From NCBI GenBank assembly GCA_049602155.1, contig JBMYRH010000002.1:65108-129107 (forward strand): 64,000 nt of DNA, in the 5' to 3' direction. Under the pieces are notes generated by a model. The model did no database searches and was not told where the DNA came from. It saw only the letters and a list, made by a program, of their open reading frames with translations. The stretch is from Myxococcota bacterium (GTDB taxonomy: Bacteria; Myxococcota_A; UBA9042; PHBI01; JBMYRH01). The translations under genes were made by a program, and so were the position numbers. This document shows, one piece after another, positions 23,701 to 43,857 of this stretch (its first letter is position 1; the number at the start of each line of letters is the position of its first letter).

Positions 23701-23872
23701 TGACGTCCCACCACACGGGAGTCCGCAGCTTGAAGTACGGGCTCTCCATGTTCGTGACGGTCCCGGCTCCGTCTGTTCGCCACGCTTGAAACGACGCTGG
23801 AACCACGGCAGCCATCGCCTGCGACGAAAGCGCGAGGAGGGCACACACAAGGAGGGAAAGACGAGTCAGCAT
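20768..23872 (-). CDS. FG-GAP/VCBS repeat (ASPIC/UnbV-like) surface protein with a MYXO-CTERM-like tail (paralog of 11580..14723)
   Basis: It has the same architecture: TPVWWDVTQDGHPELVF, then DVDGDGWLD, GDLNGDGHLD, GDLEGDGIPD. The C-terminal tail is DSGCASHSPSSTPWLWPLALLGLVALRQRRLREK. The start could be 23908 (MHRSE...) or 23872 (MLTRLSLLVCALLAL). Confidence 0.7.
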   Translation of the reverse strand: MLTRLSLLVCALLALSSQAMAAVVPASFQAWRTDGAGTVTNMESPYFKLRTPVWWDVTQDGHPELVFWSWFGLEQFERDPESGELGLTALPSTSEASKTYKDARVILAVVDIDGDGHDEMLAFTDVITVYRSTPAGIDLGVLPLPSVALNCLYDSASGDLNRDGLVDIYLSMGCFHNEAYRQTGHPDVVLMNRGAGRFEAIELEPERSVLTTSVTLADVDGDGWLDVLESVDASWISGHSRLLINRTTPGDSVPSFEPSEHQWDIGTDGMGAALGDLNGDGHLDLFNTSIGFDLLMTGDGTGRFVDETLPRGLYHFWSSLGRRSQWSPTFVDLNVDGRMDLLIRHGVRSIINTRTTVTNAPDLAYVQEEDGAMTRVWTPFVDATDDGICFAVGDLEGDGIPDAGRDAQPGGTIYWANTTEVPATTRLLTVRPKPTVSGSPATGAIVTATCGGAALTRHVTSGGKIGASAAYEAHFAWPGCANQPVALTVTWPSGAISAHDIPSDATVSVAEEPQWFTLGPGDTVTLDPEGAGAAQACVADTVGGWTCCEAACELQRPATGPGLVTLDTHAPMTLPAREASWLLTTSPHLPTPGDPVTIRLMHVGEDASFKPDALTLNVAGQDLAWSSTDDTHRALVASYDVPLDAADITMVLREAGAEVGVWNRTAGYGLDPVNGTYDLYPAKPFDMLVEPLGWQVHLCAPPGMMDNDVLSQLILTTPEGDEVESTQAFLFGRRDRLTVSAPWENLVGLDTVLVRDHLGGWTLELPVNQPPDEEALVDQIDRVVCGLSHARLRVGGDRSFGALAALDAAGNILGVSASSLALRVEGGEVVMDLRRAGELWDLGFAIAPSEAAGPGRVIVETLDGTVLGECAFVTSEWADQSEAVTTHWAVLSKESVDRTDADPTTRLRVGLINEYDELLGAAAIPTVLLVGGVWEDPMAMTDAGTYAGTIAPEPTGDTITVTVTLAGRVLETLTVSVSGTASAPEDPDTPEDPPPTEDSGCASHSPSSTPWLWPLALLGLVALRQRRLREKVGA

Positions 23873-23973
23873 TCTTACGAAGGATGATAGGGACTCACTG
23901 CGATGCACTCAACCGTGAGGGGGCGTTTCTGCGCGCTGAAGCGTCGCTAACTCGTCCCCGTTTCCCGCTGCCG

Positions 23974-27707: not shown

Positions 27708-30700
27708 ATGCTGCATCGTCACCTCACCCTCTCCTGGCTCCTATGCTCTGCGCTAGGCACGTTGGGCGCGTTATCGGTCGCGGCCTGCGGCTCGATCGAC
27801 ATCCCGACCTCGACGGGGGGCTGTCAGACTGACTCTGACTGTGGCCAAGGGGCGGTCTGTGTCGAGGAGGTCTGCACGACCAGCAGCGAAGACACGGACC
27901 AGGATGGCCTGACCAACGGTATGGAGATGAACCTGGGCACAAACCCTGCCCTCGCTGACACCGATGGCGACGGTATCGATGACAAGGCAGAGATCTCCGA
28001 TCTCTCCGATCCGGCCGACAGTGATGGCGATGGTGTCATCGACGCCCTGGAGAGCAATGGGGGAGACAAAGACGAGGACTGCATTGCCGACCAGTTTGAT
28101 GCGAATGACGCCAGCGATACAGCCGTCGTCAAGAAGCTCGAGCTGTGCGCCCTTGAAGGGGTGTGCGCTGGTGACGTTCAGCCCAAGGCCGAGTGCGCCC
28201 CTGCGGCAGCCGCGGGGGATGAGCCGACATGGTTCTGCAGCTACGGGGGCGTCGTGGGCTACAACCCAGGACCGGACAATATGTGCGACGGCTTGGACAA
28301 TGACTGCGATGGCGTGGCCGACGAAGACTTTGTAGGGGCGGAGACAGAGTGCGGCGAAGGCGCTTGCGGTGCGACGGGGGCGATGACCTGTGTCGACGGT
28401 GTGGAGGTCGACGGGTGTGAGCCTTTGGCCGCAGAGTACCTCAACGATAAGACGTGCGACGGTATCGACGAAGACTGCGATGGTGAGACCGACGAGGAGT
28501 ACGTCGGACCAGACGGGTTCTGCGGCACCGGGGCGTGCACGAGGTCAGGGTCAAGCGTCTGCTTCAACGGCGTGCCGACCCTCGATTGCATCGAGGGGGC
28601 GCCAGCCGCGAATGATGAGACCTGCGACGGTGTCGACGATGACTGTGACGAGCTCATCGACGAGGACTTCGACGGCGCGACGACAACCTGTGGTTCAGGT
28701 GGCTGTCTGACGACGGGGAAGTACCAATGTCAGGACGGCGTTGAGATCGACGATTGCGTGGCGGGCACGGGGCTGCCGACGGACGCGACCTGCGACGGTG
28801 TCGATGATGACTGTGATGGCGAGACGGACGAGGAGTATGTGTCTGACTCCGGGCCGACCAGCTGTGGGGTGGGGGCCTGCGCCTCTGAGGGGACCTTGGT
28901 CTGCGTCGGTGGTGACGTTCAGGACACGTGTATCGTCGGGACACCAGGGGAGTCCGACACCTCTTGTGACAACGTGGACAACGACTGCAACGGTGAGACC
29001 GATGAAGGTTATGTCGCCCAGGAGACGAGTTGCGGTACCGGGAGCTGTCAGGCCTCGGGGCTGACGGCCTGCGCAGAGGGGATCATCCTTGATAACTGCG
29101 TGGCGCTCTCCCCGGAGACGGACCTCGATACGACGTGCGATGGCGTGGATGACAACTGCAACGGTGAGACCGATGAGGACTTCGAAGCGGGGGTGACCTC
29201 TTGCGGAAAGGGTGTCTGCGCCTCTGAGGGAGATCAGACGTGCCAGGCCGGGGTCATTGTGGACACGTGCAAGGTCGGAGAGGTCCTCGATGGTGAATTC
29301 GATGCCTCGTGCGACGGCGCTGATCAGGACTGTGATGGCAAGGTCGATGAAGGTTTTGTCTCCGAGGACACGAGCTGTGGAGAGGGCGTGTGCCTCGGCC
29401 TTGGGACCTCAACCTGTGTGGACGGGGTGCCTGGGGATACATGCATCGTCGGTGCGCCGGTCGGTCAGGTGGACGGCGAGTGCGACGATCAAGATCAAGA
29501 CTGTGATGGCCTCGTCGATGAAGACTTCGCCCCCGCCATTGTCGCTTGCGGCGCAGGGGTGTGCGCGGGCAGCGGAGTGACGAGCTGCAATGGTGGCGAG
29601 GTCGTCGACAGTTGCAGTGAGGGCGAAGGGCTCGCGATCGACGCGTCTTGTGACGGCGAAGACAATGACTGCGACGACGCCTTTGATGAAGACTACGCCT
29701 CCGTCGAGGTCACGTGTGGGCTCGGGGTGTGCGCCAAGACCGTGATGACGAGCTGCGTCCAGGGCAGCGAGATCTCGGACTGCGCTCCCTCCGCCCCGGC
29801 TGGCGCGGATGACTCGTGCAATGGCCTTGATGACGACTGCGACGGCGCGACCGATGAGGGCTTCTCCGTGGAGTCGGTGACCTGTGGCGTCGGTGCTTGC
29901 CAGTCGGTTGGCAACATTGTGTGCGTGGATGGGGTCGAGGAGAACACCTGCGAAGTTGGGTTCCCTGGACCGAATGATGCGAGCTGTAACGGCGTCGACA
30001 ACGACTGCGATGACGCCGTTGATGAGGACTTCCTGGTCACCGCGACCGCTTGCGGCGTCGGCGTGTGTGCAGCTGCGGGAGAGCGCGTCTGCAAGGAAGG
30101 GCAAGTCGCGGACACCTGTGCGCCGCTTGAGGCCACAGGCCCGGACATCACTTGCGACGGCCTTGATGACGACTGCGATGGCACGACCGACGAGGACTAC
30201 GTGACGTCTCAATCGATGTGCGGCGATGGCGCTTGTGCTTCCATCGGTCAGAGGACCTGTATCGGCGGGGTGGAGAATGACACGTGCGAGGCGGGGCAGC
30301 CGGCCTTGGCTGACGCGACCTGCGATGGGGTCGATGACGATTGCGATGGCACGGCAGACCAGGACTATGTGGCCTTCGAGACGACCTGCGGTGTCGGGGC
30401 CTGCGAGAGTTCAGGGACGATGGCGTGTGTCGATGGCACCCCCGTCAACAGCTGTGAGCCTGCGACGGCGGCCCCCTCCGACGTGACCTGCGATGGCGTG
30501 GACGACAACTGTAACGGTCAGACCGATGAAGAGTTCTCGACCGAGTCGATCACCTGCGGGACGGGAGCGTGCCTCGCGAACGGGACGCGGACGTGCTCAA
30601 ACGGTGCAACGGTTGATAACTGTGTGGAGGGGACAGCGGCCGCAAGTGACGCGACCTGTGACGGGGTTGACGATGACTGCAGCGGTGCCACCGATGAAGA

Positions 30701-33700
30701 CTACGTAGAGACGGTCACCTCTTGTGGTGACGGCGCCTGCGCGGCGGCGGGGGCGCTGATCTGCGTGGCCGGCGAGGAGACGAGCACCTGCGTTGAAGTC
30801 GAGCCAAATGCCACTGACGATGACTGTGACGGTGTCGACGATGACTGCAATGGGGAGACCGACGAGGGCTATGTCCCCCAAGACTTCCCATGCGGCGTTG
30901 GAGAGTGCGCCCGAGTTGGACAGACGTTCTGTCAGGGGGGCAACGAGCTGAATGATTGCAGCCCTGGAGCACCGGCTCCTGACGACTCTGACGACTGTGA
31001 TGGTAAGGACAACGACTGCAATGGAGACACCGACGAGGATTACGTCAGTCAGACGACGTCCTGCGGAGACGGTGTCTGCCAGAGTTCCGGGGTCACCTCC
31101 TGTGTCTCGGGACAGGTGCAGGACTCGTGTCAGGCTCCGACAGCCCCGGCGGGCGACACTGACAGTGATTGCAATGGCCTCGACAGCGACTGCGATGGTG
31201 AGATCGATGAGGGCTACGTCAGCGTCGAGGTCACCTGCGGGGCTGGAGTCTGTCAAAACACGGGACAGAAGGTCTGTCAGGGGGCTCCATCGTACGAGGT
31301 GAACACGTGCGAGCCGCTCACCACCACGTCGACCGCGGATTACGTCTGCAACGGCCTTGACGATGATTGTGATGGCGAGACCGATGAGGACTACGTGTCG
31401 GTGCAAACCGAGTGCGGAAAGGGGGTGTGTGCGACGACCTCGATGTCGGTCTGCGAGCCGTCTGCGACGGGCGGGCCGGCTGCGGGGCCTTCGGACAATT
31501 GTGTCCCACCGGAGCCCTCGACGACCGAGCAAGATGCGAGCTGTAACGCTGCCGACGATGACTGCGATGGCGAGACAGATGAAGGGTTCGTGGCGTCGAA
31601 CACCACCTGCGGTCTTGGTATTTGTAACAGCCAGGGGGTGACAAGCTGTGGCTCCGGTGGCGTGCAGCAAGACAGCTGCCAGCCCGGTAGCCCGACCTTG
31701 GCCGTCGACGGCACCATCGCGCTCGATGAGTGCGGGGGAGGGGACAGTGACTGCGACGGTGAGACCGATGAGGACTTCTTCCCGACGCAGCTGACTTGCG
31801 GTACGGGGACCTGCGCGATGACGGTGACGACCTCCTGCAGCTCGACAGGTCAGGTCAACGACTCATGCACGCCGTCGGGTGAGCCCTCGTGCGAAAACAA
31901 AGCGTGCGGAGATGATGGGTGTGGTGGCTCTTGTGGTGACTGCGCCGCGAATGAACTCTGTACCGCCAACTTTACCTGCCAGTGTGTCCCCAGTTGCCTG
32001 AACAAGGGGTGTGGAAGTGATGGGTGTGGTGGCACCTGCGGCGATTGCCCGAACCCCGATCCCTGTCAGGTGGGGGTGTGCAACTCTTCGGGGACCTGCT
32101 CGTTTACGAACCTCGAGGACTGGACGAGCTGCGATGATGGCTCGGATGAGACCATCGGAGACTTCTGTGCGTCAGGGACCTGCGTCGGCTACGTCTACAG
32201 GGACTTCCAGCCAGCAATCGTCGACAACGTGATTCAGTCAGAGCAGTTCGTCGACGCGAGCCGTCGGCTGGGTGGTGGCGTCCACGCGGTCTACACGAGC
32301 CGCGGCGGTAACCCCTTCACTGGAGAGACGTCGGCCGCCGTGATGCAATCTTGTATCGGAGGGCTCTCTTGTAGCACCCACGTACTCGGTCATGCGGGTG
32401 AAGCTCAAGCCGTCAGTCCGGTTTTCCAGCACGTGGGTGGGCAGAACAATGTCAGTGACGGCAAGACGCTCAGCCGCACCGTGAACTCGGGCTATGCGTT
32501 TGAAGGGAACCCGCTGCAAGAGGTCTGGCTTAACCAGTGGGACGAGGTCCCTAACATCACCGCGATCGCCGGCAAGGGGGATGAATGGGTCGCGGCGGCG
32601 TATATGACGGCAGATGGGAAGCTCGCTCCTTATCTCTGTACGGTTCAGTCGTGCGCCCTGAACAGCCCCCCCGCCGAGGTAAAGTATAGTGCGCCGGTCA
32701 GGATGCGTAACGTCGCGGGTGAGCCGGTCCTCGCGGTGAACCCTGAAAGCGAGAAGCCGATCCTGCTCGCCCATTCGGCATCCGCCGGCTGGCAGATTAC
32801 GCACCAGCTCGACACGGTGGCTCAGGTCTATGACTTTACCACTATCGTCGACTCCAACGGTTCGGAGTACCACATTGGCGTCGGACGTCTGGGCCTCCTC
32901 TTCTGGGGCTGGAAGGGCTCTACTGGGCTCATCACAGTCGATGACGGTTCCAACGATGGCTTTGGGCAGACGAAGATCTCGTTCTTCTCCGTCTCACGGT
33001 TTGGTGACTGGCTCGTCGCCTTTGGGCTCCATACGAGCGGTCAGTATGTGGTGGCGTATGCACCTTGGAGTTCAAAGGCGCAGGACGGCAATCAGTGGGC
33101 TATTCGTGGGACTAAGATATTCAACAAGGAGCCCATTCAGGCCTCTCGGATGCAGTCAGATAACGACGGGATCTACGTCTTCGGCACGGTGCCCTATGAG
33201 AGCGTGGATCAGCGCGCGATGTATTACGCCGGCGCTTACCCGGACTTCGTCGTCATCAATGAGAGCTTCAATTCGAGCTTCGCGCTGGCCTTCTGGGAGT
33301 CCTTTGTCAGTTGCTCTGAGACCGAATGGTCTTCGGAAGACAGCGCGGCGACCTTGAGTGGAGGCTGCTCCGATCCAGACTCGATTGAAGAGGAGCTGGA
33401 GCTCCCAGGCGCGTTACTTTGGAGGCCAATCGATACAGGGGAGCAGTTCACCCTGACCGTGACCGCGCGTGCCGACGACGATGACGGGTATGGTGTCACG
33501 TATGCGACGATGGACGAGAAGAACCACTACCGCGTCCGGCTGGACAAGCAGCGCGGCTCTGTGCGACTTGAACGGGTCTATGAGGGAGAGGTGGTGCTCC
33601 TCGCCGAGCGCACAGACGTCGATATCCCCATCAACGTGAACACCGAGATCATGGTAGAGCGCATCGGTCCCCTGCATATCGTGAGCCTCGACGGTCAGGT

Positions 33701-33815
33701 GATGTTCCAGGCGCAAGACAACCTCCTCGCGAGCGGCGGCGTGGGTTTCTTTGCGTGGGCGATGGAGTCGGTCAGCTTCCTCGACATTCACGTCACGCGG
33801 CCTACGGCGCCGTAG
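27708..33815 (+). CDS. Giant (2035 aa) secreted lipoprotein with TSP3-like Ca repeats, about 21 tandem MopE/LDL-receptor-A-like Cys-rich modules and a Cys-poor C-terminal domain
   Basis: The signal/lipobox is SVAACGS. The N-terminal thrombospondin-type-3-like repeats read DTDGDGIDD...DSDGDGVID. Roughly 21 copies of a 45-50 aa module follow, of the form CDG(V/L)D(D/N)DC(D/N)GxTDE(D/G)(Y/F)V...TCG.G.C...G...C..G...D.C. A CG(D/S)DGCGG(S/T)CGDC segment and then a 650 aa domain with few Cys follow. Confidence 0.8.
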   Translation: MLHRHLTLSWLLCSALGTLGALSVAACGSIDIPTSTGGCQTDSDCGQGAVCVEEVCTTSSEDTDQDGLTNGMEMNLGTNPALADTDGDGIDDKAEISDLSDPADSDGDGVIDALESNGGDKDEDCIADQFDANDASDTAVVKKLELCALEGVCAGDVQPKAECAPAAAAGDEPTWFCSYGGVVGYNPGPDNMCDGLDNDCDGVADEDFVGAETECGEGACGATGAMTCVDGVEVDGCEPLAAEYLNDKTCDGIDEDCDGETDEEYVGPDGFCGTGACTRSGSSVCFNGVPTLDCIEGAPAANDETCDGVDDDCDELIDEDFDGATTTCGSGGCLTTGKYQCQDGVEIDDCVAGTGLPTDATCDGVDDDCDGETDEEYVSDSGPTSCGVGACASEGTLVCVGGDVQDTCIVGTPGESDTSCDNVDNDCNGETDEGYVAQETSCGTGSCQASGLTACAEGIILDNCVALSPETDLDTTCDGVDDNCNGETDEDFEAGVTSCGKGVCASEGDQTCQAGVIVDTCKVGEVLDGEFDASCDGADQDCDGKVDEGFVSEDTSCGEGVCLGLGTSTCVDGVPGDTCIVGAPVGQVDGECDDQDQDCDGLVDEDFAPAIVACGAGVCAGSGVTSCNGGEVVDSCSEGEGLAIDASCDGEDNDCDDAFDEDYASVEVTCGLGVCAKTVMTSCVQGSEISDCAPSAPAGADDSCNGLDDDCDGATDEGFSVESVTCGVGACQSVGNIVCVDGVEENTCEVGFPGPNDASCNGVDNDCDDAVDEDFLVTATACGVGVCAAAGERVCKEGQVADTCAPLEATGPDITCDGLDDDCDGTTDEDYVTSQSMCGDGACASIGQRTCIGGVENDTCEAGQPALADATCDGVDDDCDGTADQDYVAFETTCGVGACESSGTMACVDGTPVNSCEPATAAPSDVTCDGVDDNCNGQTDEEFSTESITCGTGACLANGTRTCSNGATVDNCVEGTAAASDATCDGVDDDCSGATDEDYVETVTSCGDGACAAAGALICVAGEETSTCVEVEPNATDDDCDGVDDDCNGETDEGYVPQDFPCGVGECARVGQTFCQGGNELNDCSPGAPAPDDSDDCDGKDNDCNGDTDEDYVSQTTSCGDGVCQSSGVTSCVSGQVQDSCQAPTAPAGDTDSDCNGLDSDCDGEIDEGYVSVEVTCGAGVCQNTGQKVCQGAPSYEVNTCEPLTTTSTADYVCNGLDDDCDGETDEDYVSVQTECGKGVCATTSMSVCEPSATGGPAAGPSDNCVPPEPSTTEQDASCNAADDDCDGETDEGFVASNTTCGLGICNSQGVTSCGSGGVQQDSCQPGSPTLAVDGTIALDECGGGDSDCDGETDEDFFPTQLTCGTGTCAMTVTTSCSSTGQVNDSCTPSGEPSCENKACGDDGCGGSCGDCAANELCTANFTCQCVPSCLNKGCGSDGCGGTCGDCPNPDPCQVGVCNSSGTCSFTNLEDWTSCDDGSDETIGDFCASGTCVGYVYRDFQPAIVDNVIQSEQFVDASRRLGGGVHAVYTSRGGNPFTGETSAAVMQSCIGGLSCSTHVLGHAGEAQAVSPVFQHVGGQNNVSDGKTLSRTVNSGYAFEGNPLQEVWLNQWDEVPNITAIAGKGDEWVAAAYMTADGKLAPYLCTVQSCALNSPPAEVKYSAPVRMRNVAGEPVLAVNPESEKPILLAHSASAGWQITHQLDTVAQVYDFTTIVDSNGSEYHIGVGRLGLLFWGWKGSTGLITVDDGSNDGFGQTKISFFSVSRFGDWLVAFGLHTSGQYVVAYAPWSSKAQDGNQWAIRGTKIFNKEPIQASRMQSDNDGIYVFGTVPYESVDQRAMYYAGAYPDFVVINESFNSSFALAFWESFVSCSETEWSSEDSAATLSGGCSDPDSIEEELELPGALLWRPIDTGEQFTLTVTARADDDDGYGVTYATMDEKNHYRVRLDKQRGSVRLERVYEGEVVLLAERTDVDIPINVNTEIMVERIGPLHIVSLDGQVMFQAQDNLLASGGVGFFAWAMESVSFLDIHVTRPTAP
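28280..31850 (+). repeat. Array of about 21 tandem approximately 140-150 nt coding repeats (Cys-rich CDGxDxDCDGxTDE modules)
   Basis: The CDG(V/L)DDDCDGETDE(D/E)(Y/F) motif reiterates throughout the translation. The DNA is divergent enough to be ancient duplications. Confidence 0.8.
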
Positions 33816-34361
33816 GTGGCCGCCGGGACGACGATTGTTCGCTTCGACATCACGCTCTCTGATGTCGACCGGGGCGTCTACGACACGCTCGAGCTCCGCG
33901 TGGCTCAGCACCCCTCGGAGAGCGATAACTACCTGCTCACGCGTGTCCTCGCCTACGCGCTCGAGTTCGAGGACGACCTGAGCTTCTCCAAAGGGCTCAG
34001 CACCCCGGATGAGCCTGCCCTTTGGTCGCACGATCCGACCGGGGCCCTCACCCGCTGGATCGAGGTTGGGAACCCGAAGCCCGATCGGATCCACCGGGCA
34101 TCCAAGGCCTCACCCACGGTGCGCATCTACACCTACAAAGACCTGGACGTGTTGCGGCGGTCCATCGCCGGTAACCACATCCACCGCATCGATGAGATCG
34201 ACGTCGTCACCCTACCGGATGACGTCTTGGCACCGCTCGCCGCCAACCTTGGGCGCGCGAACACGTGGACGCTCCTGCGCTCTGACGGCGAACTCTACGT
34301 GACTGTGGGCGACGTCAACGTCTCCTGCCCTGTCCTCCCAGTGCCCTTGAGCGGTGACTGA
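33816..34361 (+). CDS. yaeQ: YaeQ family protein
   Basis: It matches YaeQ end to end: RFDITLSDVDRGVYDTLELRVAQHPSESDNYLLTRVLAYALEF...FSKGLSTPDEPALW...LTRWIEVG. It uses a GTG start directly after the upstream stop. Confidence 0.8.
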   Translation: MAAGTTIVRFDITLSDVDRGVYDTLELRVAQHPSESDNYLLTRVLAYALEFEDDLSFSKGLSTPDEPALWSHDPTGALTRWIEVGNPKPDRIHRASKASPTVRIYTYKDLDVLRRSIAGNHIHRIDEIDVVTLPDDVLAPLAANLGRANTWTLLRSDGELYVTVGDVNVSCPVLPVPLSGD

Positions 34362-34445
34362 GGGGTGCGACGCAGAACGCTCAACCTTGACAGGGCGCCC
34401 CGAATTCAGTCCGCTGTTGTTGGCTCCAAACGACGTGAGGTGGTC

Positions 34446-35858
34446 ATGAGTAAGAGAGCAGTTGGACGACACGCGTGGCGCTGGGCGGCTGTAGCCCTCC
34501 TCGCGCTCGGGGCTGTCGCCTGCGGAGACGACGGCGCTGGTGACGGCGTGAATGGTGATGGCACCGAAGCGGTGGACGGTAATGCGACCTCCGAGCCGAC
34601 TGGCGAGGGGCTGACAGGCGCCGTGGCGTTGGCCTCATGCGATTGCGGTGATGCCAGCTGTGGACTCACTGCCTGCGGTGAGACCTGCGGGCTGTGCACC
34701 GATGATGCGTCGCCGCTCTGCTGGGCTGGTCAGTGCACTAACCCCGAGGGGTGTGACATCGTCGGGTTCACCGACCCTATCGCCTGTGACAACGACACGT
34801 ACTGCACGCCCGGGCAGCAGCCTTACGCGCAGGCCGCGACGACCCCCTCGGTCGGTGGTGGTTTCAAGGTGAAGTATGCGGCGACGGTCGACGACTACTC
34901 CTTAGAGCTCGACCCAGTCATCGACGCGGATGCGCTGGCGGATGGGCGGCCTATCGCGAAGAAGAAGATCTATTTGGAGCTCAACCACGTCGGTCAAGCC
35001 GAGGCGGGGCGACCGCTCACAGGCACCTTCCAGCTCGGCACTGATGACGCTCGAGACGACTGCACCTACTGCGTCCGCGCAGGTACATACTGCAGCGACA
35101 AGGGCTGCGGCACGGACTACGTCGCCACCGAGGGCACCCTCGAGATCACGTCCTCAGGTGAGCCCGGTACACCGCTCGTCGCCACCTTGAGGGATGTACG
35201 GTTCACACAGGTCTATCTGCACCAAATCAAAGATGACGGCACCTACAAGGTGGCGGGCCAGAGCGCCAAGGTGTGGTGCTTGGGTGACTTCCCCATCGCG
35301 TACGATGTCCCCGAGCCGACTCAGCCAGTGAGCGACTGCGTGACCGAGGGCACTGGCGTGCTTCTCGGCGACAACATCAAGGACTACACGATTCAGAATT
35401 GCCTGGGAGATGAAATCACGCTGCACAGCAGGTGCGGTCGAACCAAGGCGGTCTGGGTAGTGGCCGTCGCTGGCTGGTGAGGGGCTTGCAACTCCTTCGT
35501 TCCGAAGGTCGCTAAAGCAAGTGAAGAAGCTGGACTCAACGACGAGTTCGAGTACGCCAACCTGGACTACATGATCGTCATCAGTGAAGACGGCGGAGGC
35601 AACGTGCCGACCCTGGCCTACTGCAAGCAGTATGCCGCGAGCCACAGCGCAGATATGGCCAAGACGTTTATCGACAAGACAGGTGGCATCACCTGGGGCG
35701 CCACGTTCGACGCGATGGACAACTACGCATCAGGAGGCATGGGGGTCCCCTGGAGTGGTCTGCTTGATGGTCGCTCTATGGAGTACATCATGAACGACTA
35801 CGCGGGTGAGGGATCGATGGACTCCAACATCCAGAAGCTCTTGGAAGAGCCCCTCTAG
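34446..35858 (+). CDS. Candidate selenoprotein: a lipoprotein whose N-terminal Cys-rich domain is fused to a TlpA/ResA-like thioredoxin-fold domain with active site W-U-G-A-C (in-frame TGA at 35478-35480)
   Basis: ORFs 34365..35480 and 35571..35858 share one frame and are separated only by a TGA. Read through it, the translation is ...DYTIQNCLGDEITLHSRCGRTKAVWVVAVAGW[U]GACNSFVPKVAKASEEAG...DYMIVISEDGG...AKTFIDKTGGITWGATFDAM...GVPWSGLLDGRSMEYIMND.... This aligns with TlpA/ResA (f.l.d..G..v.L....GK.v.vnFWAsWC.pC ... cis-Pro ... G.iv) across the stop. A SECIS-like hairpin follows. The start ATG at 34446 has a GAGGTGG RBS and a signal/lipobox of AVALLALGAVACGDD. Confidence 0.6.
35484..35522 (+). 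other. Putative bacterial SECIS-like RNA hairpin downstream of the in-frame UGA
   Basis: The RNA is UGA-GGG-GCUUGC-AACU-CCUUCG-UUC-CGAAGG-UCGCUAAA-GCAAGU. The lower stem pairs 35484-35489 with 35517-35522 (CUUGC/GCAAG plus a G-U pair). The upper 6-bp stem pairs 35494-35499 with 35503-35508, with a U-rich apical loop containing GU. The apical loop sits about 20 nt after the UGA. Confidence 0.45.
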
Positions 35859-35906
35859 GGGCCCTTGAGCTGTGCGCATCACTCGGTGAGAGGGGAGGGC
35901 GGCCTG

Positions 35907-38900
35907 CTACTGGCATCCCTCTTCATCGGTCTCACCATCGCAGTCATTGTCGAGGGCGTCGTCGCAGGTCTCGATGCTGTGCTCCGGGGCGGAGCCGTCT
36001 GGGTTGGTTGAGCACGTCCCGACGTTGGCGATTCCACACTCGACGATGCCCGCGCCGCAGACCCCGAGCCCCTCGCAGGCCTCGCCAACTGGCAGCCCCT
36101 GGTAGTTGATCCCGTTGTCGATGACGCCGTCACAGTCATCATCCACGCCGTTACACAGCTCTACCTCTGCTGGACCTTGCTCATTGGTGCAGACCAGCCA
36201 GAGCCCTGTAGGGCCGCAGCTCCACGACCCTGTCTGACACTGGTCGAGGTCAGGCCCGTCGCATGGAGCGCCCTTGAGGGGCAGATGCTCATCGGTGTTG
36301 CCATCACAGTCATTGTCTAGCTCATCACACATATCTTCGCTGCTCTGCCACCCCTCCAAGAGCTCGTAGTTGCACATCCAGCTGCCGTTCTCACAGGTGG
36401 TCACGTCGTTGACCCCCGTGCATACGCCGACCGCTGAGCACCCGGCGTCCTCGAGGTTCAACTCGGACAGCTCATCAGTCTCTCCATCGCAGTCGTCGTC
36501 GAGCGCGTTACAGGTCTCTGGCGAGGCCTGGTCACTGCTCCCGCCCTCCCCAGAAGAGCACCCTGGGGTCCCGTCAGGCAGACATTCGACTACCCCGGCT
36601 CCGCAGACGCCCACCGGGGGGCACGTCGCGCCGATCGGCAAATCGTTGAAGGCGAAGCCCTCGTCCGTCAGGCCGTCGCAGTCGTCGTCTACAGCGTTGC
36701 ATGACTCAGCGACGCTCTCGTCGTTGGCTCCACCGGGCCCCGTCGAGCACATCAGGCTGCCGTCACTGGGGTGACATTGGACCACTCCGGGGCCACAGGC
36801 TCCCTCACCGTCGCACGCTGCCCCGAGGGAGTGGCCGTCGAGGGTCAGGGCTTCGTCGGTTAACCCGTCGCAGTCGTTGTCTTGACCGTCGCACGCGAGC
36901 TCCACGATCTGGTGGTCGGGCACCGCGCTGTAGTCACAGACGATCCCTTCACCGTCGCAGAGCACGAGGATGCTCTCTGTTTGGCTACAGACGCCCTCCT
37001 GGAGACACCCTGCGTCGAGAGGAGAGATGTCGAGCTCGTCGGTGACGCCGTCGCAGTCGTCGTCGATGGCGTTGCAGGTCTCTACGAGGTCGGTGCTCGT
37101 CTCGTTCGCGCAGGTCGTCCCGCTGCCATCCGCGAGGCACGTCCATGTCCCCAAGGCACACGAGTCGGTGTCGTCTCCGTCGCAGGCTTCGCCGACGAGC
37201 CACCCCTCATCGGTGACCCCGTCACAGTCGTTGTCGAGCCCGTCGCAGAGGGTCTCTTCAAGCTGCCACTGTGGGACTGAGTCGAAGTAGCATAACCATT
37301 CACCAGCCTTGCACTCCGCGGCCCCATCGCTGCCCAAGCACACGCCCTGCTGACCGCAGAGGCTATCATTGATCCCCAGTCCTTCGTCGACGTGGCCATC
37401 ACAGTCGTTGTCTGAGCCGTCACACAACTCGGGGCTGGCTTGGTCGTCGACGCCCCCGGGATGGGTAGAGCAGATGGTGTCGTCGATGCCCCAGCACTGC
37501 ACGACGCCGAGTCCACAGGCTCCAATCCCTTCACAGGGTTGGCCAACGGGGAGGCCTTGATAGAAGAAGTTCTCGTCGACCGCCCCATCACAGTCATCGT
37601 CGCCACTGTTGCAGGTCTCGGGTACGGCCTGCGAGAAGGCCCCATCGGCGTGGGTCGAGCAGGTCGTCGCGCCGATGGCGTTGCACTGTACGATGCCTGC
37701 GCCGCAGAGCCCCTCGCCCTCGCAGACGTTGCCGAGCCCGATGCCCTTGTAGTGCACGCCCTCATCGGTCGCGCCGTCGCAGTCGTTATCCAAGGTGTCG
37801 CAGATCTCCGGCACCGAGGTCGGTGACTCGGGGCCGCAGACGAGGCCAGTCCCATCGGCGTTACAGACCATCACCCCAAATTCGCATTGATCACTGTCTG
37901 GTCCATCACAGGGCATGCCGAGGTCGAAGAAGACCTCGTCGATCTCCCCATCACAGTCGTCATCAAGGCCGTTACAGACCTCCTCTGCTTGGAACTTGTC
38001 GTTGATGCACAGCACCTGGACCGTCGAGGTCGCGCTGTCATGCACACACACCCACTCGCCTGGCGCGCACTCGGGGACGTCAGGCCCACAGCTGCCGATC
38101 TGCCCTGTCGGGTTGCCCTCGTCGATCTGACCGTCACAGTCCTCGTCGATATAATTACAGGCCTCTTTGGCCCACGGGTTCACCGTGTGATTCGTGTCGT
38201 TGCAGTCGACCCCCGTATGGAAGCCGTCACCGTCGTTGTCAGACACCGTCTCACAGGGCAAATCACCGCCGATGCAGTCTTGGTCGATGCCGTCGCTGCA
38301 CTTCTCAACCGCCCCAGGGTACGTGTGCGGGTCGGTGTCGTCGCAATCTCCTTGCCCCTCGGTGTAGCCGTCAGCGTCCAAGTCTGTCAGCGCACACGGC
38401 ATGACGATGCCGTCACAGTTGAGGTCGCAGAGTGTGGCACCCGCGGCCCCTAGCGCAGGGTCGCAGCACGGCTCAGGCGCGCCGGGATAGCGGGCAGCAT
38501 CTGTGTCGTCGCAGTCCCCTTCGTCAGCCGTCAGCCCGTCAGCGTCGAGGTCATAGAGTGGGCAAACGAACTCATCGGTGGCGCCGTTGCAGTCGTCATC
38601 GATGCCGTTGCAGGTCTCGTACAGGTTGGTCACCGTCTCATCGCTGCAGACCGTGCCGCTCCCATCGCCCAAGCAGACCCGGGTGCCGTTCGCGCACAGG
38701 TCCATGTCCGGGCCGTCACAGGCTTCTCCTAGTCCAGTGAAGGGCTCATCGATGCCGCCACTGCAGTCGTTGTCGATGCCATCGCACCGCTCGGGCTCGT
38801 AGAGGATCGCCCCCTGGCAGTGAATCGCCGCTCCGAATTGGTAATGCGTACAGACCATCTGACCGGACTGGCAGTACGCGTCACCCGTGCCACACGGCTG

Positions 38901-40562
38901 GCCAGCCTGGGGGTTGCCCTCGTCCGTGAGGCCATCGCAGTCGTTGTCCAAGTTATCGCAGAGCTCGGGCGCCCCCGGGTGGACCGAAGGGTTGCCCTCA
39001 TTGCAGTCCGCGGGAGGGATCCAGTCGTCATTATCCTTGTCGACGGCTGGGTTACAGACGATGTCGCCCCCTTGGCAGTCTTGATCGACACCATCGCCGC
39101 ACTTCTCCGGCGCGCCCGGGTAAATCGTGGCGTCGAGGTCGTTGCAGTCCTCAGGCGGGCAGCTTCCGTCGCCGTCCACGTCACAGCCGGCGCAGGCGAG
39201 GGCGGCGCCATCACAGTTCAAGTCGCAGCTGTCGAGGGACGCGTTAGCTGGGCAGCACGGCTCGGGTGCACCCTGATAGCTCGCGCTATCTGTCGGTGAG
39301 CAGTCGAGGTCATTAGGGACGCCATCACCGTCCCAGTCTAAGGAGTCGCAGTCCTCGTTGACCTGACCGTCGCAGTCGTTGTCCACGTTGTCCGCGCAGG
39401 TCTCGGCAGTCGCCAAGCCCAGCGTCGAACAAGTCGCTGTCCCGTCGGCGTTGCAGATAACCTCGCCGCCTTCACACTGGCCAACCCCGCAGAGTGAACC
39501 AAAGGCCAGCTGTTTGCCGTTCTCGATGTAGTAGGGCTGCTCGTCGATGAAGCCGTCGCAGTCGTTGTCGATGCCATCGCACAGCTCTGCAGTCGGGGGA
39601 TTGGCGCTGCACTTGGACCAGCCATCGAGCTGGCAGATCATGACGCCCGTGCACAGTCCGTCTGGGCCCTGGTTTTCACAGCCCAACGTGGCCCCCAAGA
39701 GGCCCTCGGAGCAGCTGCAGGACTGGGTCCACGGCATGCACTGGCCGTCATCCCCACAGTCAAAGCCCGTCGGGCAGTCACTGTTGCCGCCGCACGGGGC
39801 CCCGCAGAAGCGCTCTCCTTGTGCGTTCTCAAGGCACGCGGCGCCGAGGGTCGGGCAGTCAGCGTCTTGAGTGCAGGGGGTGCAGACACCTTCAGGGAAG
39901 TTGGCGCAGGCCGCACTCCCGTCGCCTTGTGGGAGGCAGATGAGCCCTGGTGCACATACGCCCGTACATGGGTCGTTCAGTTCAGGGAACTCCGACGCCA
40001 CAGCGTCTGCATCATCGGCGCTCTCGGTGTCCTCGACGTCCACCGCTACTTCGTCAGCGTCCGAGGTTCCCTCGTCGGTCGCATCGATGTCACCGGGGTC
40101 GTCCTCGACCTCTGTGTCGAGCGCCACATCGTCATCGGTCGACGCACTGTCAGAGTCCGCGTCGACATCGGCGGTGGCCGTGACGTCGTCGGTGACGTCC
40201 TGCGCCTCAACGTCTGATCCCATGTCACCGTCGACCGGCTGAAGAGTGTCCTCGGGTGCATCCGCGATGTCCGTCGCGGTCGTGATGTCCGCTGGGCTCC
40301 AGACTTCGGTCTGCGTGTCTGGGCTCTCTACATCCTGGGTGGTCGTCTCGGTGTCGCCCTCAGCCGATGCGTCGAAGTCGGCGCCCTCGCTGCTTTGACA
40401 GAGACCTGCCACACAGAGCAATGGCGGCGTGCATTGCTCATCGCTGATGCACGCCTCCCCCTGACCGACTTGGTTCATCGTGATGCGTGTACAGCTGCTC
40501 AGCCCCATCAGGAGGACGAGTGACAGCGACGGGGTTAGGGCCAAAAGCCTTCGTGAGAGCAT
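35907..40562 (-). CDS. Giant (1551 aa) secreted lipoprotein with an acidic N-terminal region and about 18 tandem MopE/LDL-receptor-A-like Cys-rich modules
   Basis: The signal/lipobox is LLMGLSSCTR. An acidic D/E/T-rich linker follows. The repeated modules are CDG(I/L)DNDCDGxxDE ... C..G.C......C. A 10-nt gap separates it from the upstream gene 40573..43788, which is probably co-transcribed. Confidence 0.8.
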   Translation of the reverse strand: MLSRRLLALTPSLSLVLLMGLSSCTRITMNQVGQGEACISDEQCTPPLLCVAGLCQSSEGADFDASAEGDTETTTQDVESPDTQTEVWSPADITTATDIADAPEDTLQPVDGDMGSDVEAQDVTDDVTATADVDADSDSASTDDDVALDTEVEDDPGDIDATDEGTSDADEVAVDVEDTESADDADAVASEFPELNDPCTGVCAPGLICLPQGDGSAACANFPEGVCTPCTQDADCPTLGAACLENAQGERFCGAPCGGNSDCPTGFDCGDDGQCMPWTQSCSCSEGLLGATLGCENQGPDGLCTGVMICQLDGWSKCSANPPTAELCDGIDNDCDGFIDEQPYYIENGKQLAFGSLCGVGQCEGGEVICNADGTATCSTLGLATAETCADNVDNDCDGQVNEDCDSLDWDGDGVPNDLDCSPTDSASYQGAPEPCCPANASLDSCDLNCDGAALACAGCDVDGDGSCPPEDCNDLDATIYPGAPEKCGDGVDQDCQGGDIVCNPAVDKDNDDWIPPADCNEGNPSVHPGAPELCDNLDNDCDGLTDEGNPQAGQPCGTGDAYCQSGQMVCTHYQFGAAIHCQGAILYEPERCDGIDNDCSGGIDEPFTGLGEACDGPDMDLCANGTRVCLGDGSGTVCSDETVTNLYETCNGIDDDCNGATDEFVCPLYDLDADGLTADEGDCDDTDAARYPGAPEPCCDPALGAAGATLCDLNCDGIVMPCALTDLDADGYTEGQGDCDDTDPHTYPGAVEKCSDGIDQDCIGGDLPCETVSDNDGDGFHTGVDCNDTNHTVNPWAKEACNYIDEDCDGQIDEGNPTGQIGSCGPDVPECAPGEWVCVHDSATSTVQVLCINDKFQAEEVCNGLDDDCDGEIDEVFFDLGMPCDGPDSDQCEFGVMVCNADGTGLVCGPESPTSVPEICDTLDNDCDGATDEGVHYKGIGLGNVCEGEGLCGAGIVQCNAIGATTCSTHADGAFSQAVPETCNSGDDDCDGAVDENFFYQGLPVGQPCEGIGACGLGVVQCWGIDDTICSTHPGGVDDQASPELCDGSDNDCDGHVDEGLGINDSLCGQQGVCLGSDGAAECKAGEWLCYFDSVPQWQLEETLCDGLDNDCDGVTDEGWLVGEACDGDDTDSCALGTWTCLADGSGTTCANETSTDLVETCNAIDDDCDGVTDELDISPLDAGCLQEGVCSQTESILVLCDGEGIVCDYSAVPDHQIVELACDGQDNDCDGLTDEALTLDGHSLGAACDGEGACGPGVVQCHPSDGSLMCSTGPGGANDESVAESCNAVDDDCDGLTDEGFAFNDLPIGATCPPVGVCGAGVVECLPDGTPGCSSGEGGSSDQASPETCNALDDDCDGETDELSELNLEDAGCSAVGVCTGVNDVTTCENGSWMCNYELLEGWQSSEDMCDELDNDCDGNTDEHLPLKGAPCDGPDLDQCQTGSWSCGPTGLWLVCTNEQGPAEVELCNGVDDDCDGVIDNGINYQGLPVGEACEGLGVCGAGIVECGIANVGTCSTNPDGSAPEHSIETCDDALDNDCDGETDEEGCQ
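35930..39600 (-). repeat. Array of about 18 tandem coding repeats (CDGxDNDCDGxTDE modules)
   Basis: Motif reiteration is visible in the translation. Confidence 0.75.
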
Positions 40563-40572
40563 TAACAGCGCG

Positions 40573-43500
40573 CTACTCGCAGTCTTCGATCGGTTGTGTC
40601 ATGCAACTCCCGACCACACACACGCCATCGAGGCAGGGGTCGTCTGTTGCACAGGGGTAGTTGGCCAGCACTTCGATGTCATCCAGGCGGATGTCGACCG
40701 CGCTCGCAGTCTCGGCCGCGAGGGACGCTTCGAACTGAGCGATCACAGGCCCGGCTTGGGGGGTCATGGGCAAGTCGAACTGTGTCCAATCTGCGGTCGA
40801 TTCACAGGCCACGGTCAACAGCGTTTGCCCGACGGTCACGGTCAACGTGTCATCGTCACAGCCCTCGTCTCCCACGGCCATGGAGAGCATAAAGCGGAGC
40901 GTCGCGCCGTCCGCAGGGATGTGGAACTCGGGGGTCTTCAAGCGCAAGACAACGGGCTCATCGACCCAGTCACTGGGGCCGGTAATGGCGACCGCGCTAG
41001 GGGCGGAGCTCGAGGAGGCCGTGTTGGCAGACCATGACCAGGCCGGGGCGCTCGTCTCTTGTGTCCAGCCCGGCGGGATGCCGAGGGACGTGATCCCATC
41101 AAAGTCGTCTCCGATGAGGACCTGCCCGTCATGCAGAGGCTCCGCCCAACACTCGCCCTCTTGGCACATGCCCATGGCGCAAGGGTTGCCTGTGTCGCAG
41201 ACCTTGGGTGTCCCCGTGCAGACCCCTTCGCTGCAGGCATCGTCGACCGTGCATAGGTCGCCGTCATCGCAGGCTTCGTTGTGAGCCGGGAACTGACAAC
41301 CGACCTCGCTGTTGCAGAGGTCGGAGGTGCAAGGATCGTCGTCATGGCACACCAGCGCTTGACCGACGCAGACGCCCTCGGAGCATTGGCCATCGGTGCT
41401 GCATGCATCACCGGTGTCACACGCCCCCTCGATGAAGATGGCCTCGCAGATACCGTCAACACATGAGGGCACTGCGCAGGGACCTAGGTAAGGGCAGTCG
41501 GATGCGATGTCACAGACGCAGACGTCTTGCGGGATGTTCACGCACCCCGTGTCGGGGGAGCACGCGTCCGCCGTGCAGGGGTCATCGTCGTCGCAGGCTA
41601 CCTCGGCCAGTTCGCATGAACCCTCTTGGCAGGTCTCGCCAGTGGTACAGATGTCGCTGTCGATGCACGAGAAGAGCGCGTCGATCTCGACGGCGTCGAT
41701 GGCCGCTCCGAACCCTCCGTTTTGCGTGTCATTCGCGATGAATCGGAAGGCGAGTTGCACGCGCAGGTTTCGGTAGGCAGAGAGGTCGACCACTTGGTCT
41801 GTCCACTCCGTCTGAGTCTGACAGACGAGCTGGAGCGGGGTGAAGATCCCGTAGGCCTGAATGCCCACCTGCAGTGCATCGGTGCCGCAGCCTGACTGGG
41901 CGAGGGCGGTGCGGACCTTGTAGCGCAGCTCAAGCTGCTCTCCGTAGACATGGAACCACGGGGAGCGGAGCCACGCCTCGACCGGGCCGTCGTAGTTGCC
42001 ATTGGGGCCTGTGACGACCATCCCGAGTCCGCCCTCTCCAGCGGCATACGCGCCACTGGGCTCCCAGATGATGTCCGGGTTGTCAGTCTCTGTGGTCCAG
42101 CCCTCCGGGTAGCCTTGATCGAAGGTGGCCTCCAAGAGCTGCTCACCTTCATCGAGCAGCTTGGTATAACAGCCGGTGTCCGTGCAGAGGTTGGCGGTGC
42201 ACGGGTTGCCGTCTTCGCAATCGACCGGGGTCGTCGCGCAGCTTCCATCGAAGCAGAAGCCGTCCACAGAGCATGGATCATCGTCGTCGCATTGGAGTCC
42301 ATCTTGCTGCTCCACCAGCGCGCATTCGCCCGTCTCTGAGACACAGATGTTCTGCATGCATGGGTGTCCGCTCTCTTCGCACGCGGGTACGCTCGTCATG
42401 TCGGGCGTACAGACGATTGGGAACACATCCACGCCGCAGTAGTAGTCTGGCGAGCACGGGTCATCGTTGTTGTAGGCCGCGCAGTCATCATCAACCTCGC
42501 ACTCACAGATGGAGGGCCCAGCTGTACATGCCCCACTCAGGCAGAAGTCAGCGTCAGTGCAGGGGTCCTCTAAGCTGCAGGGGCTTAGGTCGAGCACGGC
42601 CACAGACGCACACTTACCTGTGCTGCTCACGCACTGGTCGTCGGTGCAGGCGTTGTCGTCATTGCAGTCTTTCGGGGTCCCCGTGCACACACCTTCGACG
42701 CAGGCGTCGTCGATGGTGCATGGCTGCAAGTCGTTGCAGGTGCCCTCGACGGGTGCAAACACACACCCGCCTGTCTCGGCATCGCAGGTCCCCTCAGTGC
42801 ACGTATTGTCATCGACGCAGCTCACAGGGGTGCCAAAGCAAGAGCCATCCGCGAGGCAGGCGTCGCCCGTGGTGCACGCATCAGCATCGTCGCATGATGC
42901 ACCTTGGTCGACCTCGTGGACGCAGCCCCCGGCGTCTCGATCGCAGCTGTCGATCGTGCATGGATCGCCGTCATCACAGTCGATCTCGGGCCCGAGACAG
43001 GCGCCAGCGTCATCGCATTGCCCGGCGTCAACACAAGGATCGTCGGCGGCTGTACAGTCGGCGCCGTTGTTGATGGGCGCCGCGAGACACTCTCCACTCT
43101 CAGGGATGCATTCACCGACGGTGCAGTCTGAGTTTAATGCGTCGGGGCAGATGACGGTCTTCGTGACATCGAAGGCACAGGTGTAGTCGCCTTGGCATGC
43201 GAAGAGGCCCTCGCAACGGTCCTCCGGGTTGAGCCCCTCACAGTCGTCATCAGCGGTGCACTCACAGGCGTCGGTGGGGGCACCGACGCACAGTCCGGTC
43301 GCATCGCAGCTGTCCTCTTCCGTGCAGCCAAGGCCGTCATCGCAGGAGTTCCCCACCGCGATAGGGTAGTCACAGGCCCCTGTCTCCGGGACACAGAGGT
43401 CTGCCGTGCAGGGGTCTTCGTCGTCGCAGTCTCGCGCGACACCGCTGCAGCCGCCGTTGTTGCAGACGTCACCCGTCGTGCAGAGCAGACCATCGTCACA

Positions 43501-43788
43501 GGTGGCGCCATTGAAGCTCGCGCCATCGTAGCGGCATTGCCCCTCTGTACAGCTAATGGTGAGGCATTCCCCTGCCAAGTAATCGTAGTCGCTTAGCTTA
43601 TCCACACAGTCTTGTTGAGCCGTGCACTCATCGACGGCGACTTGGTTATTGGAGGCGCCCGAGCCGTTGCCCCACCCGGGGTCCTGGGTAGGCTCGTCTG
43701 CGCCACAGCCGGCGAAGAGCACGGTCAAGACCGCAACCCTGGCCAGGGTTGATGCGGTGTGGCTCAATACCCGCCGGACGCTGAACAT
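40573..43788 (-). CDS. Giant (about 1070 aa) secreted lipoprotein with CTxDxC-type cysteine-rich repeats and two MAM/galactose-binding-like beta-sandwich inserts
   Basis: The lipobox is VLFAGCGADE. Dozens of motifs like CDDGDPCTIDSCD..GGC, CNDDNACTDDQC and DDDPCTADAC occur. There are two Cys-poor inserts of about 140 aa, EGWTTETDNPDIIWEPS...LRYKV... and PGWTQETSAPAWSWS...LRFML.... The ORF track starts at 43872; the signal peptide begins at Met near 43788. Confidence 0.7.
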   Translation of the reverse strand: MFSVRRVLSHTASTLARVAVLTVLFAGCGADEPTQDPGWGNGSGASNNQVAVDECTAQQDCVDKLSDYDYLAGECLTISCTEGQCRYDGASFNGATCDDGLLCTTGDVCNNGGCSGVARDCDDEDPCTADLCVPETGACDYPIAVGNSCDDGLGCTEEDSCDATGLCVGAPTDACECTADDDCEGLNPEDRCEGLFACQGDYTCAFDVTKTVICPDALNSDCTVGECIPESGECLAAPINNGADCTAADDPCVDAGQCDDAGACLGPEIDCDDGDPCTIDSCDRDAGGCVHEVDQGASCDDADACTTGDACLADGSCFGTPVSCVDDNTCTEGTCDAETGGCVFAPVEGTCNDLQPCTIDDACVEGVCTGTPKDCNDDNACTDDQCVSSTGKCASVAVLDLSPCSLEDPCTDADFCLSGACTAGPSICECEVDDDCAAYNNDDPCSPDYYCGVDVFPIVCTPDMTSVPACEESGHPCMQNICVSETGECALVEQQDGLQCDDDDPCSVDGFCFDGSCATTPVDCEDGNPCTANLCTDTGCYTKLLDEGEQLLEATFDQGYPEGWTTETDNPDIIWEPSGAYAAGEGGLGMVVTGPNGNYDGPVEAWLRSPWFHVYGEQLELRYKVRTALAQSGCGTDALQVGIQAYGIFTPLQLVCQTQTEWTDQVVDLSAYRNLRVQLAFRFIANDTQNGGFGAAIDAVEIDALFSCIDSDICTTGETCQEGSCELAEVACDDDDPCTADACSPDTGCVNIPQDVCVCDIASDCPYLGPCAVPSCVDGICEAIFIEGACDTGDACSTDGQCSEGVCVGQALVCHDDDPCTSDLCNSEVGCQFPAHNEACDDGDLCTVDDACSEGVCTGTPKVCDTGNPCAMGMCQEGECWAEPLHDGQVLIGDDFDGITSLGIPPGWTQETSAPAWSWSANTASSSSAPSAVAITGPSDWVDEPVVLRLKTPEFHIPADGATLRFMLSMAVGDEGCDDDTLTVTVGQTLLTVACESTADWTQFDLPMTPQAGPVIAQFEASLAAETASAVDIRLDDIEVLANYPCATDDPCLDGVCVVGSCMTQPIEDCE

Positions 43789-43857
43789 CCCTGGTGGCGA
43801 GCTTAAATGGAGAGATCTGTCCGACGTTTCACTCATAGCTTGAGTGTACCCAGCCGC

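Follow-up and report, generated by a model that had tools for sequence, protein, structure and literature searches.

A selenocysteine-containing, TlpA-like lipoprotein encoded among giant Cys-rich lipoproteins in a Myxococcota genome belongs to a family that is not linked to such giants

In a 64,000-nucleotide stretch of a Myxococcota bacterium genome (contig JBMYRH010000002.1; hereafter the window), positions 27708-43788 carry three genes for giant Cys-rich repeat lipoproteins, termed G1, G2, and G3, and, among them, a gene for a lipoprotein redoxin that is interrupted by an in-frame UGA codon. The first-pass annotation of this DNA had proposed that the redoxin is an isomerase/reductase dedicated to the giants. 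Our analysis supports the redoxin as a TlpA/ResA-like thioredoxin-fold lipoprotein with selenocysteine (Sec) in the nucleophilic position, whereas the comparisons lend a dedicated oxidative-folding system no support beyond synteny at the clade level, as a Cys-rich giant lies near the redoxin in just three of the 10 genomic contexts judged independent. We lean, with modest confidence in the whole, toward a reading in which (i) the giants form two transcription units, namely G1 and G3-G2; (ii) the redoxin family has a fixed architecture of a lipobox, a linker, a Cys-knot of ∼35 residues, a β-sandwich, and a ResA/TlpA/DsbE-like fold whose active site reads WCxxC or WUxxC; and (iii) the redoxin is a lipid-anchored extracytoplasmic oxidoreductase of general or unassigned specificity, a ResA/TlpA-like reductase/isomerase that is coexpressed with G1 by virtue of operon position, without being dedicated to the giants.

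The redoxin gene (34446-35858, plus strand; 470 residues including Sec; stop codon TAG at 35856-35858) has a reading frame that runs from 34446 through the TGA at 35478-35480 as ...VAVAGW-U-GACNSFVPKV..., with the UGA of the resulting W-U-G-A-C motif aligned with the first Cys of WCGAC homologs. Among 5.8 billion proteins, our search returned 12 relatives, 9 of which end exactly at ...AVAGW; the other three (41-44% identical) continue as AGW-C-GAC..FVP.. for 115-120 more residues, aligning with the post-UGA frame of the window. Genomes and metagenomes yielded further Sec and Cys forms, including that of locus L012, whose homolog is 52% identical overall and 75% identical in the post-UGA part. 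Moreover, a SECIS-like (Sec insertion sequence-like) hairpin of 6 bp, CCUUCG-UUC-CGAAGG, lies 13 nt 3' of the UGA (35494-35508, plus strand). The eight distinct Sec loci agree at every hairpin nucleotide, whereas flanking synonymous sites vary; the invariant nucleotides include a GTT valine codon, at which most Cys forms have GTG or GTC and cannot form the hairpin. Together, these comparisons make the assignment of the UGA as a Sec codon well supported. Reassignment of UGA in the genetic code was considered and ruled out, because TGA is the commonest ordinary stop codon and ends 15 of the 33 window genes.

That the UGA is instead a true stop, or the gene a pseudogene, leaving a Cys-rich lipoprotein of 344 residues that lacks a working thioredoxin fold, is a view to which we give almost no credence. 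It can draw on the public gene calls, which stop at the UGA; on the hairpin, which shows no covariation and a local fold energy no better than that of shuffled sequences (z = 0.30); on an Rfam scan of the window, which found no SECIS or other family; and on a tRNA scan of the window, which found no tRNA of any kind, hence no tRNA-Sec there. It does not account for the many independent clusters in which the truncation coincides exactly with the catalytic Cys, for a frame after the UGA that stays open and is conserved as far as the thioredoxin fold extends, or for the invariant hairpin; further, if a thioredoxin fold ended with its first strand, it would not stay conserved.

Public gene calls split the redoxin at the Sec codon into open reading frames (ORFs) of 344 and 95 residues. 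In locus L001, for example, a 344-residue "hypothetical protein" (6343-7377) is followed by a second ORF (7468-7755), and the same pattern recurs in L002-L004, L010, and L012, where the second ORF has 95-105 residues. The short second ORF is the rest of the thioredoxin fold, and the split is a systematic annotation artifact of the redoxin family. The corrected annotation thus restores a widespread Myxococcota lipoprotein redoxin that gene callers divide at its Sec codon. When 1.84 billion cluster representatives were searched exhaustively with a profile, the family came to 390 clusters with E ≤ 1e-3, of which 182 reach E ≤ 1e-10. Nearly all of these clusters start with a lipoprotein signal, and approximately one-quarter of the top 150 end at ...GW, corresponding to the Sec forms, while the remainder contain AGWCxxC; Sec/Cys switching is frequent in this two-domain family. 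Of the five members with a genome of origin, four are in records whose titles name Myxococcota or Myxococcales metagenome-assembled genomes. We found no curated Pfam or NCBIfam model for the two-domain architecture; what is new here is the fusion of a Sec/Cys TlpA-like domain, itself of a known kind, to a conserved N-terminal domain lacking such a model.

The Cys form in L005 retains a hairpin, CCUUUG-UCC-CGAAGG, at the SECIS-like position, ∼45 nt downstream of the TGC of its active site; this hairpin may be left over from a recent switch from Sec to Cys. L026 (9999-11450) encodes a divergent Sec form with the motif W-U-P-G-C, whose open frame runs on to a full thioredoxin domain.

The redoxin comprises, in order, a lipobox (LGAVAC), an acidic linker, the Cys-knot, the β-sandwich, and the ResA/TlpA-like thioredoxin fold. 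When scanned separately against Pfam and NCBIfam, the two halves on either side of the UGA gave no match, whereas the fused sequence with U replaced by C gave weak thioredoxin matches. The sequence matches to Thioredoxin_9, Redoxin, Thioredoxin, and ResA all fall under the curated thresholds; for the Pfam Redoxin and AhpC-TSA models, the fused window protein scores 16.7-20 bits (cut-offs 23.5-26.6). The fold was assigned from an AlphaFold (AF2) model of the Cys homolog P0010 (44% identical; pLDDT, the model's confidence score, 84; alignment of 42 sequences), which shows a disordered linker, a small Cys-rich unit with a β-sandwich (residues ∼50-225), and a thioredoxin fold. Foldseek searches with this model placed ResA at the top (E = 4e-8, TM 0.80), with ResA/DsbE as the best structural matches and TlpA and Sco proteins also among the structural neighbors. 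At the fold level, the TlpA-like label given in the first-pass annotation is thus right. The active site (W-U-G-A-C in the window, WCGAC in Cys homologs) sits at a helix N terminus, as in ResA/TlpA, and a conserved [VIL]PW lies near the redoxin C terminus, where it is identified with the cis-Pro loop by sequence position only.

ResA, TlpA, and CcmG (DsbE; the TlpA-like family, cd02966) are membrane-anchored extracytoplasmic thiol-disulfide reductases, from which the redoxin differs in several ways. Its family scores only ∼20-36 bits against cut-offs of 170-230 (for NCBIfam ResA, 19-36 bits versus 170; for TlpA, 18-19 bits versus 230), and because these scores fall far below the family cut-offs, it belongs to the superfamily without being an equivalog of either ResA or TlpA. 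It also has an extra N-terminal Cys-knot and β-sandwich of ∼250 residues, a lipid anchor in place of a transmembrane helix, and Sec in about one-quarter of the family clusters. Moreover, no ccs/res/ccdA, cytochrome c/cox maturation, or DsbD/CcdA genes were found in the Pfam-scanned ORFs of the window (several smaller ORFs were unscanned), and none for cytochrome c/cox maturation or CcdA/DsbD in the Pfam-annotated neighborhoods of homologs, including L001, L005, L007, L010, L026, L027, and L028. The standard cytochrome-c maturation ResA that the first-pass annotation had named as a competing identity thus does not describe this protein. The best PDB sequence match is human TXNDC12 (ERp18/19; E = 0.0035), a eukaryotic protein disulfide isomerase-family protein of the endoplasmic reticulum that shares the W-C-G-A-C motif of the Cys homologs, the similarity spanning only the ∼40 residues that surround the active site.

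Catalogues already list marine UxxC selenoproteins of the "Prx-like/Trx-like" and "thiol-disulfide isomerase-like (cd02966)" types (PMC2398784, PMC13188914), and by their descriptions a Sec-containing TlpA-like protein is therefore of a known kind. The redoxin resembles them in its marine origin, its UxxC motif, its weak pfam00578/pfam08534 similarity, its many Cys homologs, and the place of its SECIS-like hairpin, which like their SECIS lies shortly 3' of the UGA. The comparison is by description only, and a two-domain lipoprotein architecture does not appear in the catalogue descriptions compared. Another candidate, the NCBIfam family NF041054 ("ResA-like WAxxUGC motif-containing protein"), is likewise a ResA-like selenoprotein of similar length (354 residues); membership was rejected, as the homologs score 18.8-25 bits against a cut-off of 300, and the motif is AGW-U-G-A-C and not WAxxUGC.

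The weak AhpC-TSA and Redoxin matches, together with the distant relatives P0016 and P0026, which pass the AhpC-TSA cut-off of 26 (30.5 and 42.1 bits), bear on a different role, in which the redoxin would be an extracytoplasmic antioxidant or repair component, serving either as an electron donor to a surface methionine sulfoxide reductase (Msr) or as a peroxiredoxin-like peroxide/hydroperoxide reductase, with no part in folding. Marine UxxC selenoprotein families described as "Prx-like" (PMC2398784) and the hsp20 stress genes near the redoxin in L027 and L028 would fit such a role. On the other hand, the WUxxC/WCxxC motif is at a helix N terminus, as in ResA/TlpA, and is not the peroxiredoxin PxxxTxxC; the top structural matches are ResA/DsbE; and no msr gene was seen in any neighborhood inspected. 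The models for the electron-donor variant, the lipoproteins Etrx1 and Etrx2 of Streptococcus pneumoniae, are, like SdbA of S. gordonii, surface TlpA-fold oxidoreductases; however, all of these are Gram-positive Cys enzymes without the N-terminal domain, and their partners MsrAB2 and CcdA were not seen near the redoxin. We regard an antioxidant role as unlikely, although it deserves some weight.

The redoxin is flanked by the giants, with G1 (27708-33815, plus strand; 2035 residues) and yaeQ (33816-34361, plus strand; 181 residues; PF07152, 179 bits) upstream and, on the minus strand, G2 (35907-40562; 1551 residues) and G3 (40573-43788; 1071 residues) downstream. The first-pass annotation had the essentials of this layout right, that is, three giant lipoproteins (here 4657 residues and 422 Cys in total) with lipobox signals, their module content (here ∼21 modules in G1, 16-18 in G2, and CTDC-type repeats in G3), their placement around yaeQ and a TlpA-like candidate selenoprotein, which carries the lipobox, the ResA/TlpA fold, and the in-frame UGA aligned with Cys, and a probable operon of the two minus-strand giants. 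Only 10 nt separate the G3 stop codon from the G2 start, which makes a G3-G2 operon probable. On the plus strand, the GTG start of yaeQ abuts the G1 stop codon with zero spacing, and 84 nt separate yaeQ from the redoxin, which is preceded by the ribosome-binding site GAGGTGG. From this spacing, G1, yaeQ, and the redoxin are probably cotranscribed in this lineage, and coexpression of the redoxin with G1 is therefore likely, although this is no proof of an enzyme-substrate relation. A promoter and terminator scan of the window gave results at or below shuffle expectation. Among ∼38 genes of the window supported by GC3 (G+C content at third codon positions), the Cys content reaches 4% only in G1, G2, G3, and the redoxin, and all four lie within 16 kb; because so few genes reach this level, the Cys-rich cluster is real and above background. 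YaeQ lacks a signal peptide, as befits a member of a family generally considered cytoplasmic, and its gene is wedged between those of a giant lipoprotein and a lipoprotein redoxin in the same order in L001, L010, L012, and L021.

To place the redoxin in its genomic settings, loci were grouped into 10 independent contexts by identity and synteny, and neighboring genes were taken from a GC3-guided table; a context was scored positive when a Cys-rich giant lay within two genes of the redoxin, and L012 was too short to score. Three contexts were positive: (i) the Sec clade of the window, comprising L001, L021, and L010 (92%, 81%, and 67% redoxin identity, respectively), which keeps G1-yaeQ-redoxin; (ii) the Cys forms of L005, L011, and L015 (∼42%), which have a 1032-residue TSP3 protein with 7.7% Cys directly upstream and no yaeQ; and (iii) the Cys form of L013, with an ORF of 5% Cys two genes away. 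The other seven were negative, namely the Cys forms of L007, L014/L022, L016/L018, L017, L027, and L028, and the divergent Sec form of L026, which has genes for a DAO/Pyr_redox protein and a two-component system as neighbors. Approximately 5% of flanking genes are Cys-rich giants, which gives a ∼19% chance of at least one in four slots, and against this background 3 of 10 is not significant (binomial P = 0.29). The co-occurrence of redoxin homologs with Cys-rich giants in other Myxococcota, by which the first-pass annotation proposed that its dedicated isomerase/reductase be judged, thus fails outside the immediate clade: as 7 of 10 contexts contain no giant, the redoxin family as such is not linked to Cys-rich giants, closeness to them is not a property of the family, and a dedicated role is refuted at the family level.

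The commonest context is a housekeeping block of a pncA-like isochorismatase, the redoxin, lgt, hsp20, ABC-F, and rhomboid genes. The divergent pncA-like isochorismatase gene is found near the redoxin in L016, L017, L018, L027, and L028; lgt is nearby in L007, L027, and L028; hsp20 and rhomboid genes are present in L027 and L028; and ABC-F genes are found in L027, L028, and L005. The block occupies 9191-16110 in L027, 9269-12663 in L028, and 6351-7193 in L007, along with the upstream genes in L016, L017, and L018, and hsp20 occurs twice. A lipoprotein redoxin is hence repeatedly encoded close to lgt, the gene for prolipoprotein diacylglyceryl transferase.

The N-terminal domain of the redoxin provides a further connection to G1. 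Its Cys-knot module, CGLTACGETCGLC (34659-34697, plus strand), carries the pattern CGx3CGx2CGxC, of which all six window frames together contain three copies, once in the redoxin and twice in G1 (31905-31943 and 32010-32048, plus strand), and, across 262 kb of related loci, only in redoxin homologs and G1 orthologs. The first-pass annotation had called the redoxin N-domain loosely similar in style to the CGDDGCGGSCGDC segment of G1, which proved an understatement, as the two are homologous: hhalign aligned the G1 segment with the redoxin family profile over 43 columns with a probability of 95% and E = 1.7e-8, and BLASTP matched it to a divergent family member at 2e-7, values that Cys/Gly composition may inflate. 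The module had no match in Pfam or the PDB. Since the Cys-knot is also present in redoxins without G1 nearby, it is a feature of the family and does not demonstrate an enzyme-substrate relation.

Several observations nevertheless weigh against a redoxin of general specificity. The Cys-knot is shared by G1 and the redoxin and is absent from the other window and related-locus proteins scanned; the Cys-rich genes of the window are confined to one 16-kb stretch; the G1 stop codon abuts yaeQ, with only 84 nt from there to the redoxin; the block is kept in L010 and L021, at 67-81% redoxin identity, with the G2 ortholog still downstream in L010 despite an unrelated 869-residue gene inserted before it; and a Cys-rich 1032-residue TSP3 protein is encoded directly upstream of the redoxin in L005, L011, and L015. 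In addition, the ∼19% background is a rough estimate from few loci, and no DsbD/CcdA electron donor was found in the scanned genes, so that the direction in which the redoxin would work is conjectural.

These same observations, namely the probable G1-yaeQ-redoxin operon, its conservation in L001, L010, and L021, the adjoining TSP3 protein, the common Cys-knot, and the clustering of all Cys-rich window genes, are what speaks for the Sec redoxin as an isomerase/reductase dedicated to its neighbors, at least in the marine Sec clade. There, G1-yaeQ-redoxin would be a functional operon, the selenoenzyme would be specialized for the hundreds of disulfides in the giants, and the shared Cys-knot might serve as a docking or coassembly element between enzyme and substrate. 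However, 7 of the 10 independent contexts have no Cys-rich neighbor and the enrichment is not significant; the divergent Sec form of L026 is not beside giants; the Cys-knot is family-wide in redoxins, with or without G1 nearby; and a cytoplasmic-type yaeQ is interposed. Further, the G1-yaeQ-redoxin block occurs only in the Sec clade (L001, L010, and L021), where it survives down to 67% identity of the redoxin and 38% of the G1 C terminus, and it could be either synteny merely inherited among fairly close relatives or a lineage-specific functional link. In uropathogenic Escherichia coli, DsbL/DsbI is a substrate-dedicated Dsb pair encoded beside its substrate, the arylsulfate sulfotransferase AssT. 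In systems of that type adjacency defines the system, whereas the redoxin adjoins Cys-rich giants in 3 of 10 contexts only. We therefore consider dedication to the giants improbable even for the Sec clade. If true, it would provide a rare selenoenzyme devoted to extracytoplasmic folding, the first substrate-linked selenoprotein folding catalyst in the bacterial envelope, and a handle on how proteins with >60 disulfides fold.

Under the reading that we favor, in which the redoxin has general or unassigned specificity, the enzyme would be lipid-anchored outside the cytoplasm, where its exposed first active-site residue (Sec here) would attack substrate disulfides and the second, Cys, would resolve the selenenylsulfide. 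It would thereby act as a disulfide reductase/isomerase along the lines of ResA or TlpA, with a housekeeping role in the lineage, and its position beside the giants would reflect synteny specific to the Sec clade.

The giants themselves contain 162 (G1, 8.0%), 147 (G2, 9.5%), and 113 (G3, 10.6%) Cys residues and are strongly acidic, with 19-22% D+E and 1-3% K+R. All three have basic, hydrophobic signals at their N termini (ending in LSVAAC in G1, GLSSC in G2, and LFAGC in G3), and these, like that of the redoxin, conform to the lipobox pattern [LVI..][ASTVI][GAS]C as read directly from the translations, which is pattern-level evidence for predicted bacterial lipoproteins. In G3, the signal peptide starts at the ATG at 43788, although the longest ORF reaches an upstream TTG at 43872. 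G1 begins with TSP3_bac repeats and contains ∼21 MopE-motif modules of 56 residues, with exactly 6 Cys per module, along with its two Cys-knot modules; G2 has 16-18 modules of the MopE motif CDGxDNDCDGxxDE; and in G3, Dicty_CTDC repeats (PF00526, 44.7 bits versus a cut-off of 27) are interrupted by two choice-of-anchor J domains (NF038128, 65.2 bits versus 30). No DNA-level tandem repeats were found in G1-G3, and the repeats are therefore old. The C-terminal ∼550 residues of G1 are repeat-free, and a homolog search with this region returned no match. Within it, the last ∼110 residues (∼1910-2020; window 33440-33780) weakly match the CBM66/LamG-like fructan-binding module of levanase (PDB 4AZZ/4B1L, E = 0.007), which suggests a lectin-like tip.

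The Asp-rich, six-Cys modules of G1 and G2 suggest calcium binding combined with disulfides, and the giants are most simply read as putative adhesin- or lectin-like surface proteins, stabilized by disulfides and probably by calcium too. Proteins of the MopE-motif and CTDC types are ordinary surface proteins for Myxococcota. The nearest studied myxobacterial example is TraA of Myxococcus xanthus, a cell-surface receptor with Cys-rich repeats (PMC3325183). G1 and G2 resemble it as myxobacterial-type surface proteins with Cys-rich repeat stalks, whereas neither PA14 nor a variable recognition domain is present in G1-G3.

The MopE motif could also be taken to indicate metal capture, with the redoxin keeping the Cys ligands of the giants reduced for copper or another metal, by analogy with TlpA, which reduces ScoI and CoxB. 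G1 and G2 do match PF11617, Cu-binding_MopE (112 and 297 bits, respectively, versus a cut-off of 27), a segment of G2 aligns with the N terminus of MopE (PDB 2VOV, residues 5-47), and TlpA and Sco are among the structural neighbors of the redoxin model. MopE of Methylococcus capsulatus, however, has a single PF11617 motif, as opposed to ∼20 each in G1 and G2; the PF11617 name denotes a putative motif only; and an even six Cys with many Asp is more typical of disulfide-stabilized, calcium-binding repeats. As no copper genes (sco, copA, or cox) are present in the window or related loci, and a family-wide association is likewise lacking, we judge metal capture to be very improbable.

Upstream of G3 and divergent from it is a gene for a Peptidase_M74 (MepA-like murein endopeptidase; 43807-44985, plus strand), an arrangement that recurs in L001; this gene is overlapped by the G3 ORF when that is started at 43872, and not when it is started at the ATG at 43788. 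Elsewhere in the window, a 1579-residue lipoprotein (15990-20729, plus strand) has a full α-2-macroglobulin set of domains (MG2, A2M_BRD, A2M, TED, and a receptor-binding domain), and two FG-GAP/ASPIC-UnbV repeat proteins of ∼1050 residues with low Cys content are encoded on the minus strand (11580-14837 and 20768-23908). Genes for very large secreted proteins, of more than one type, thus abound in the region.

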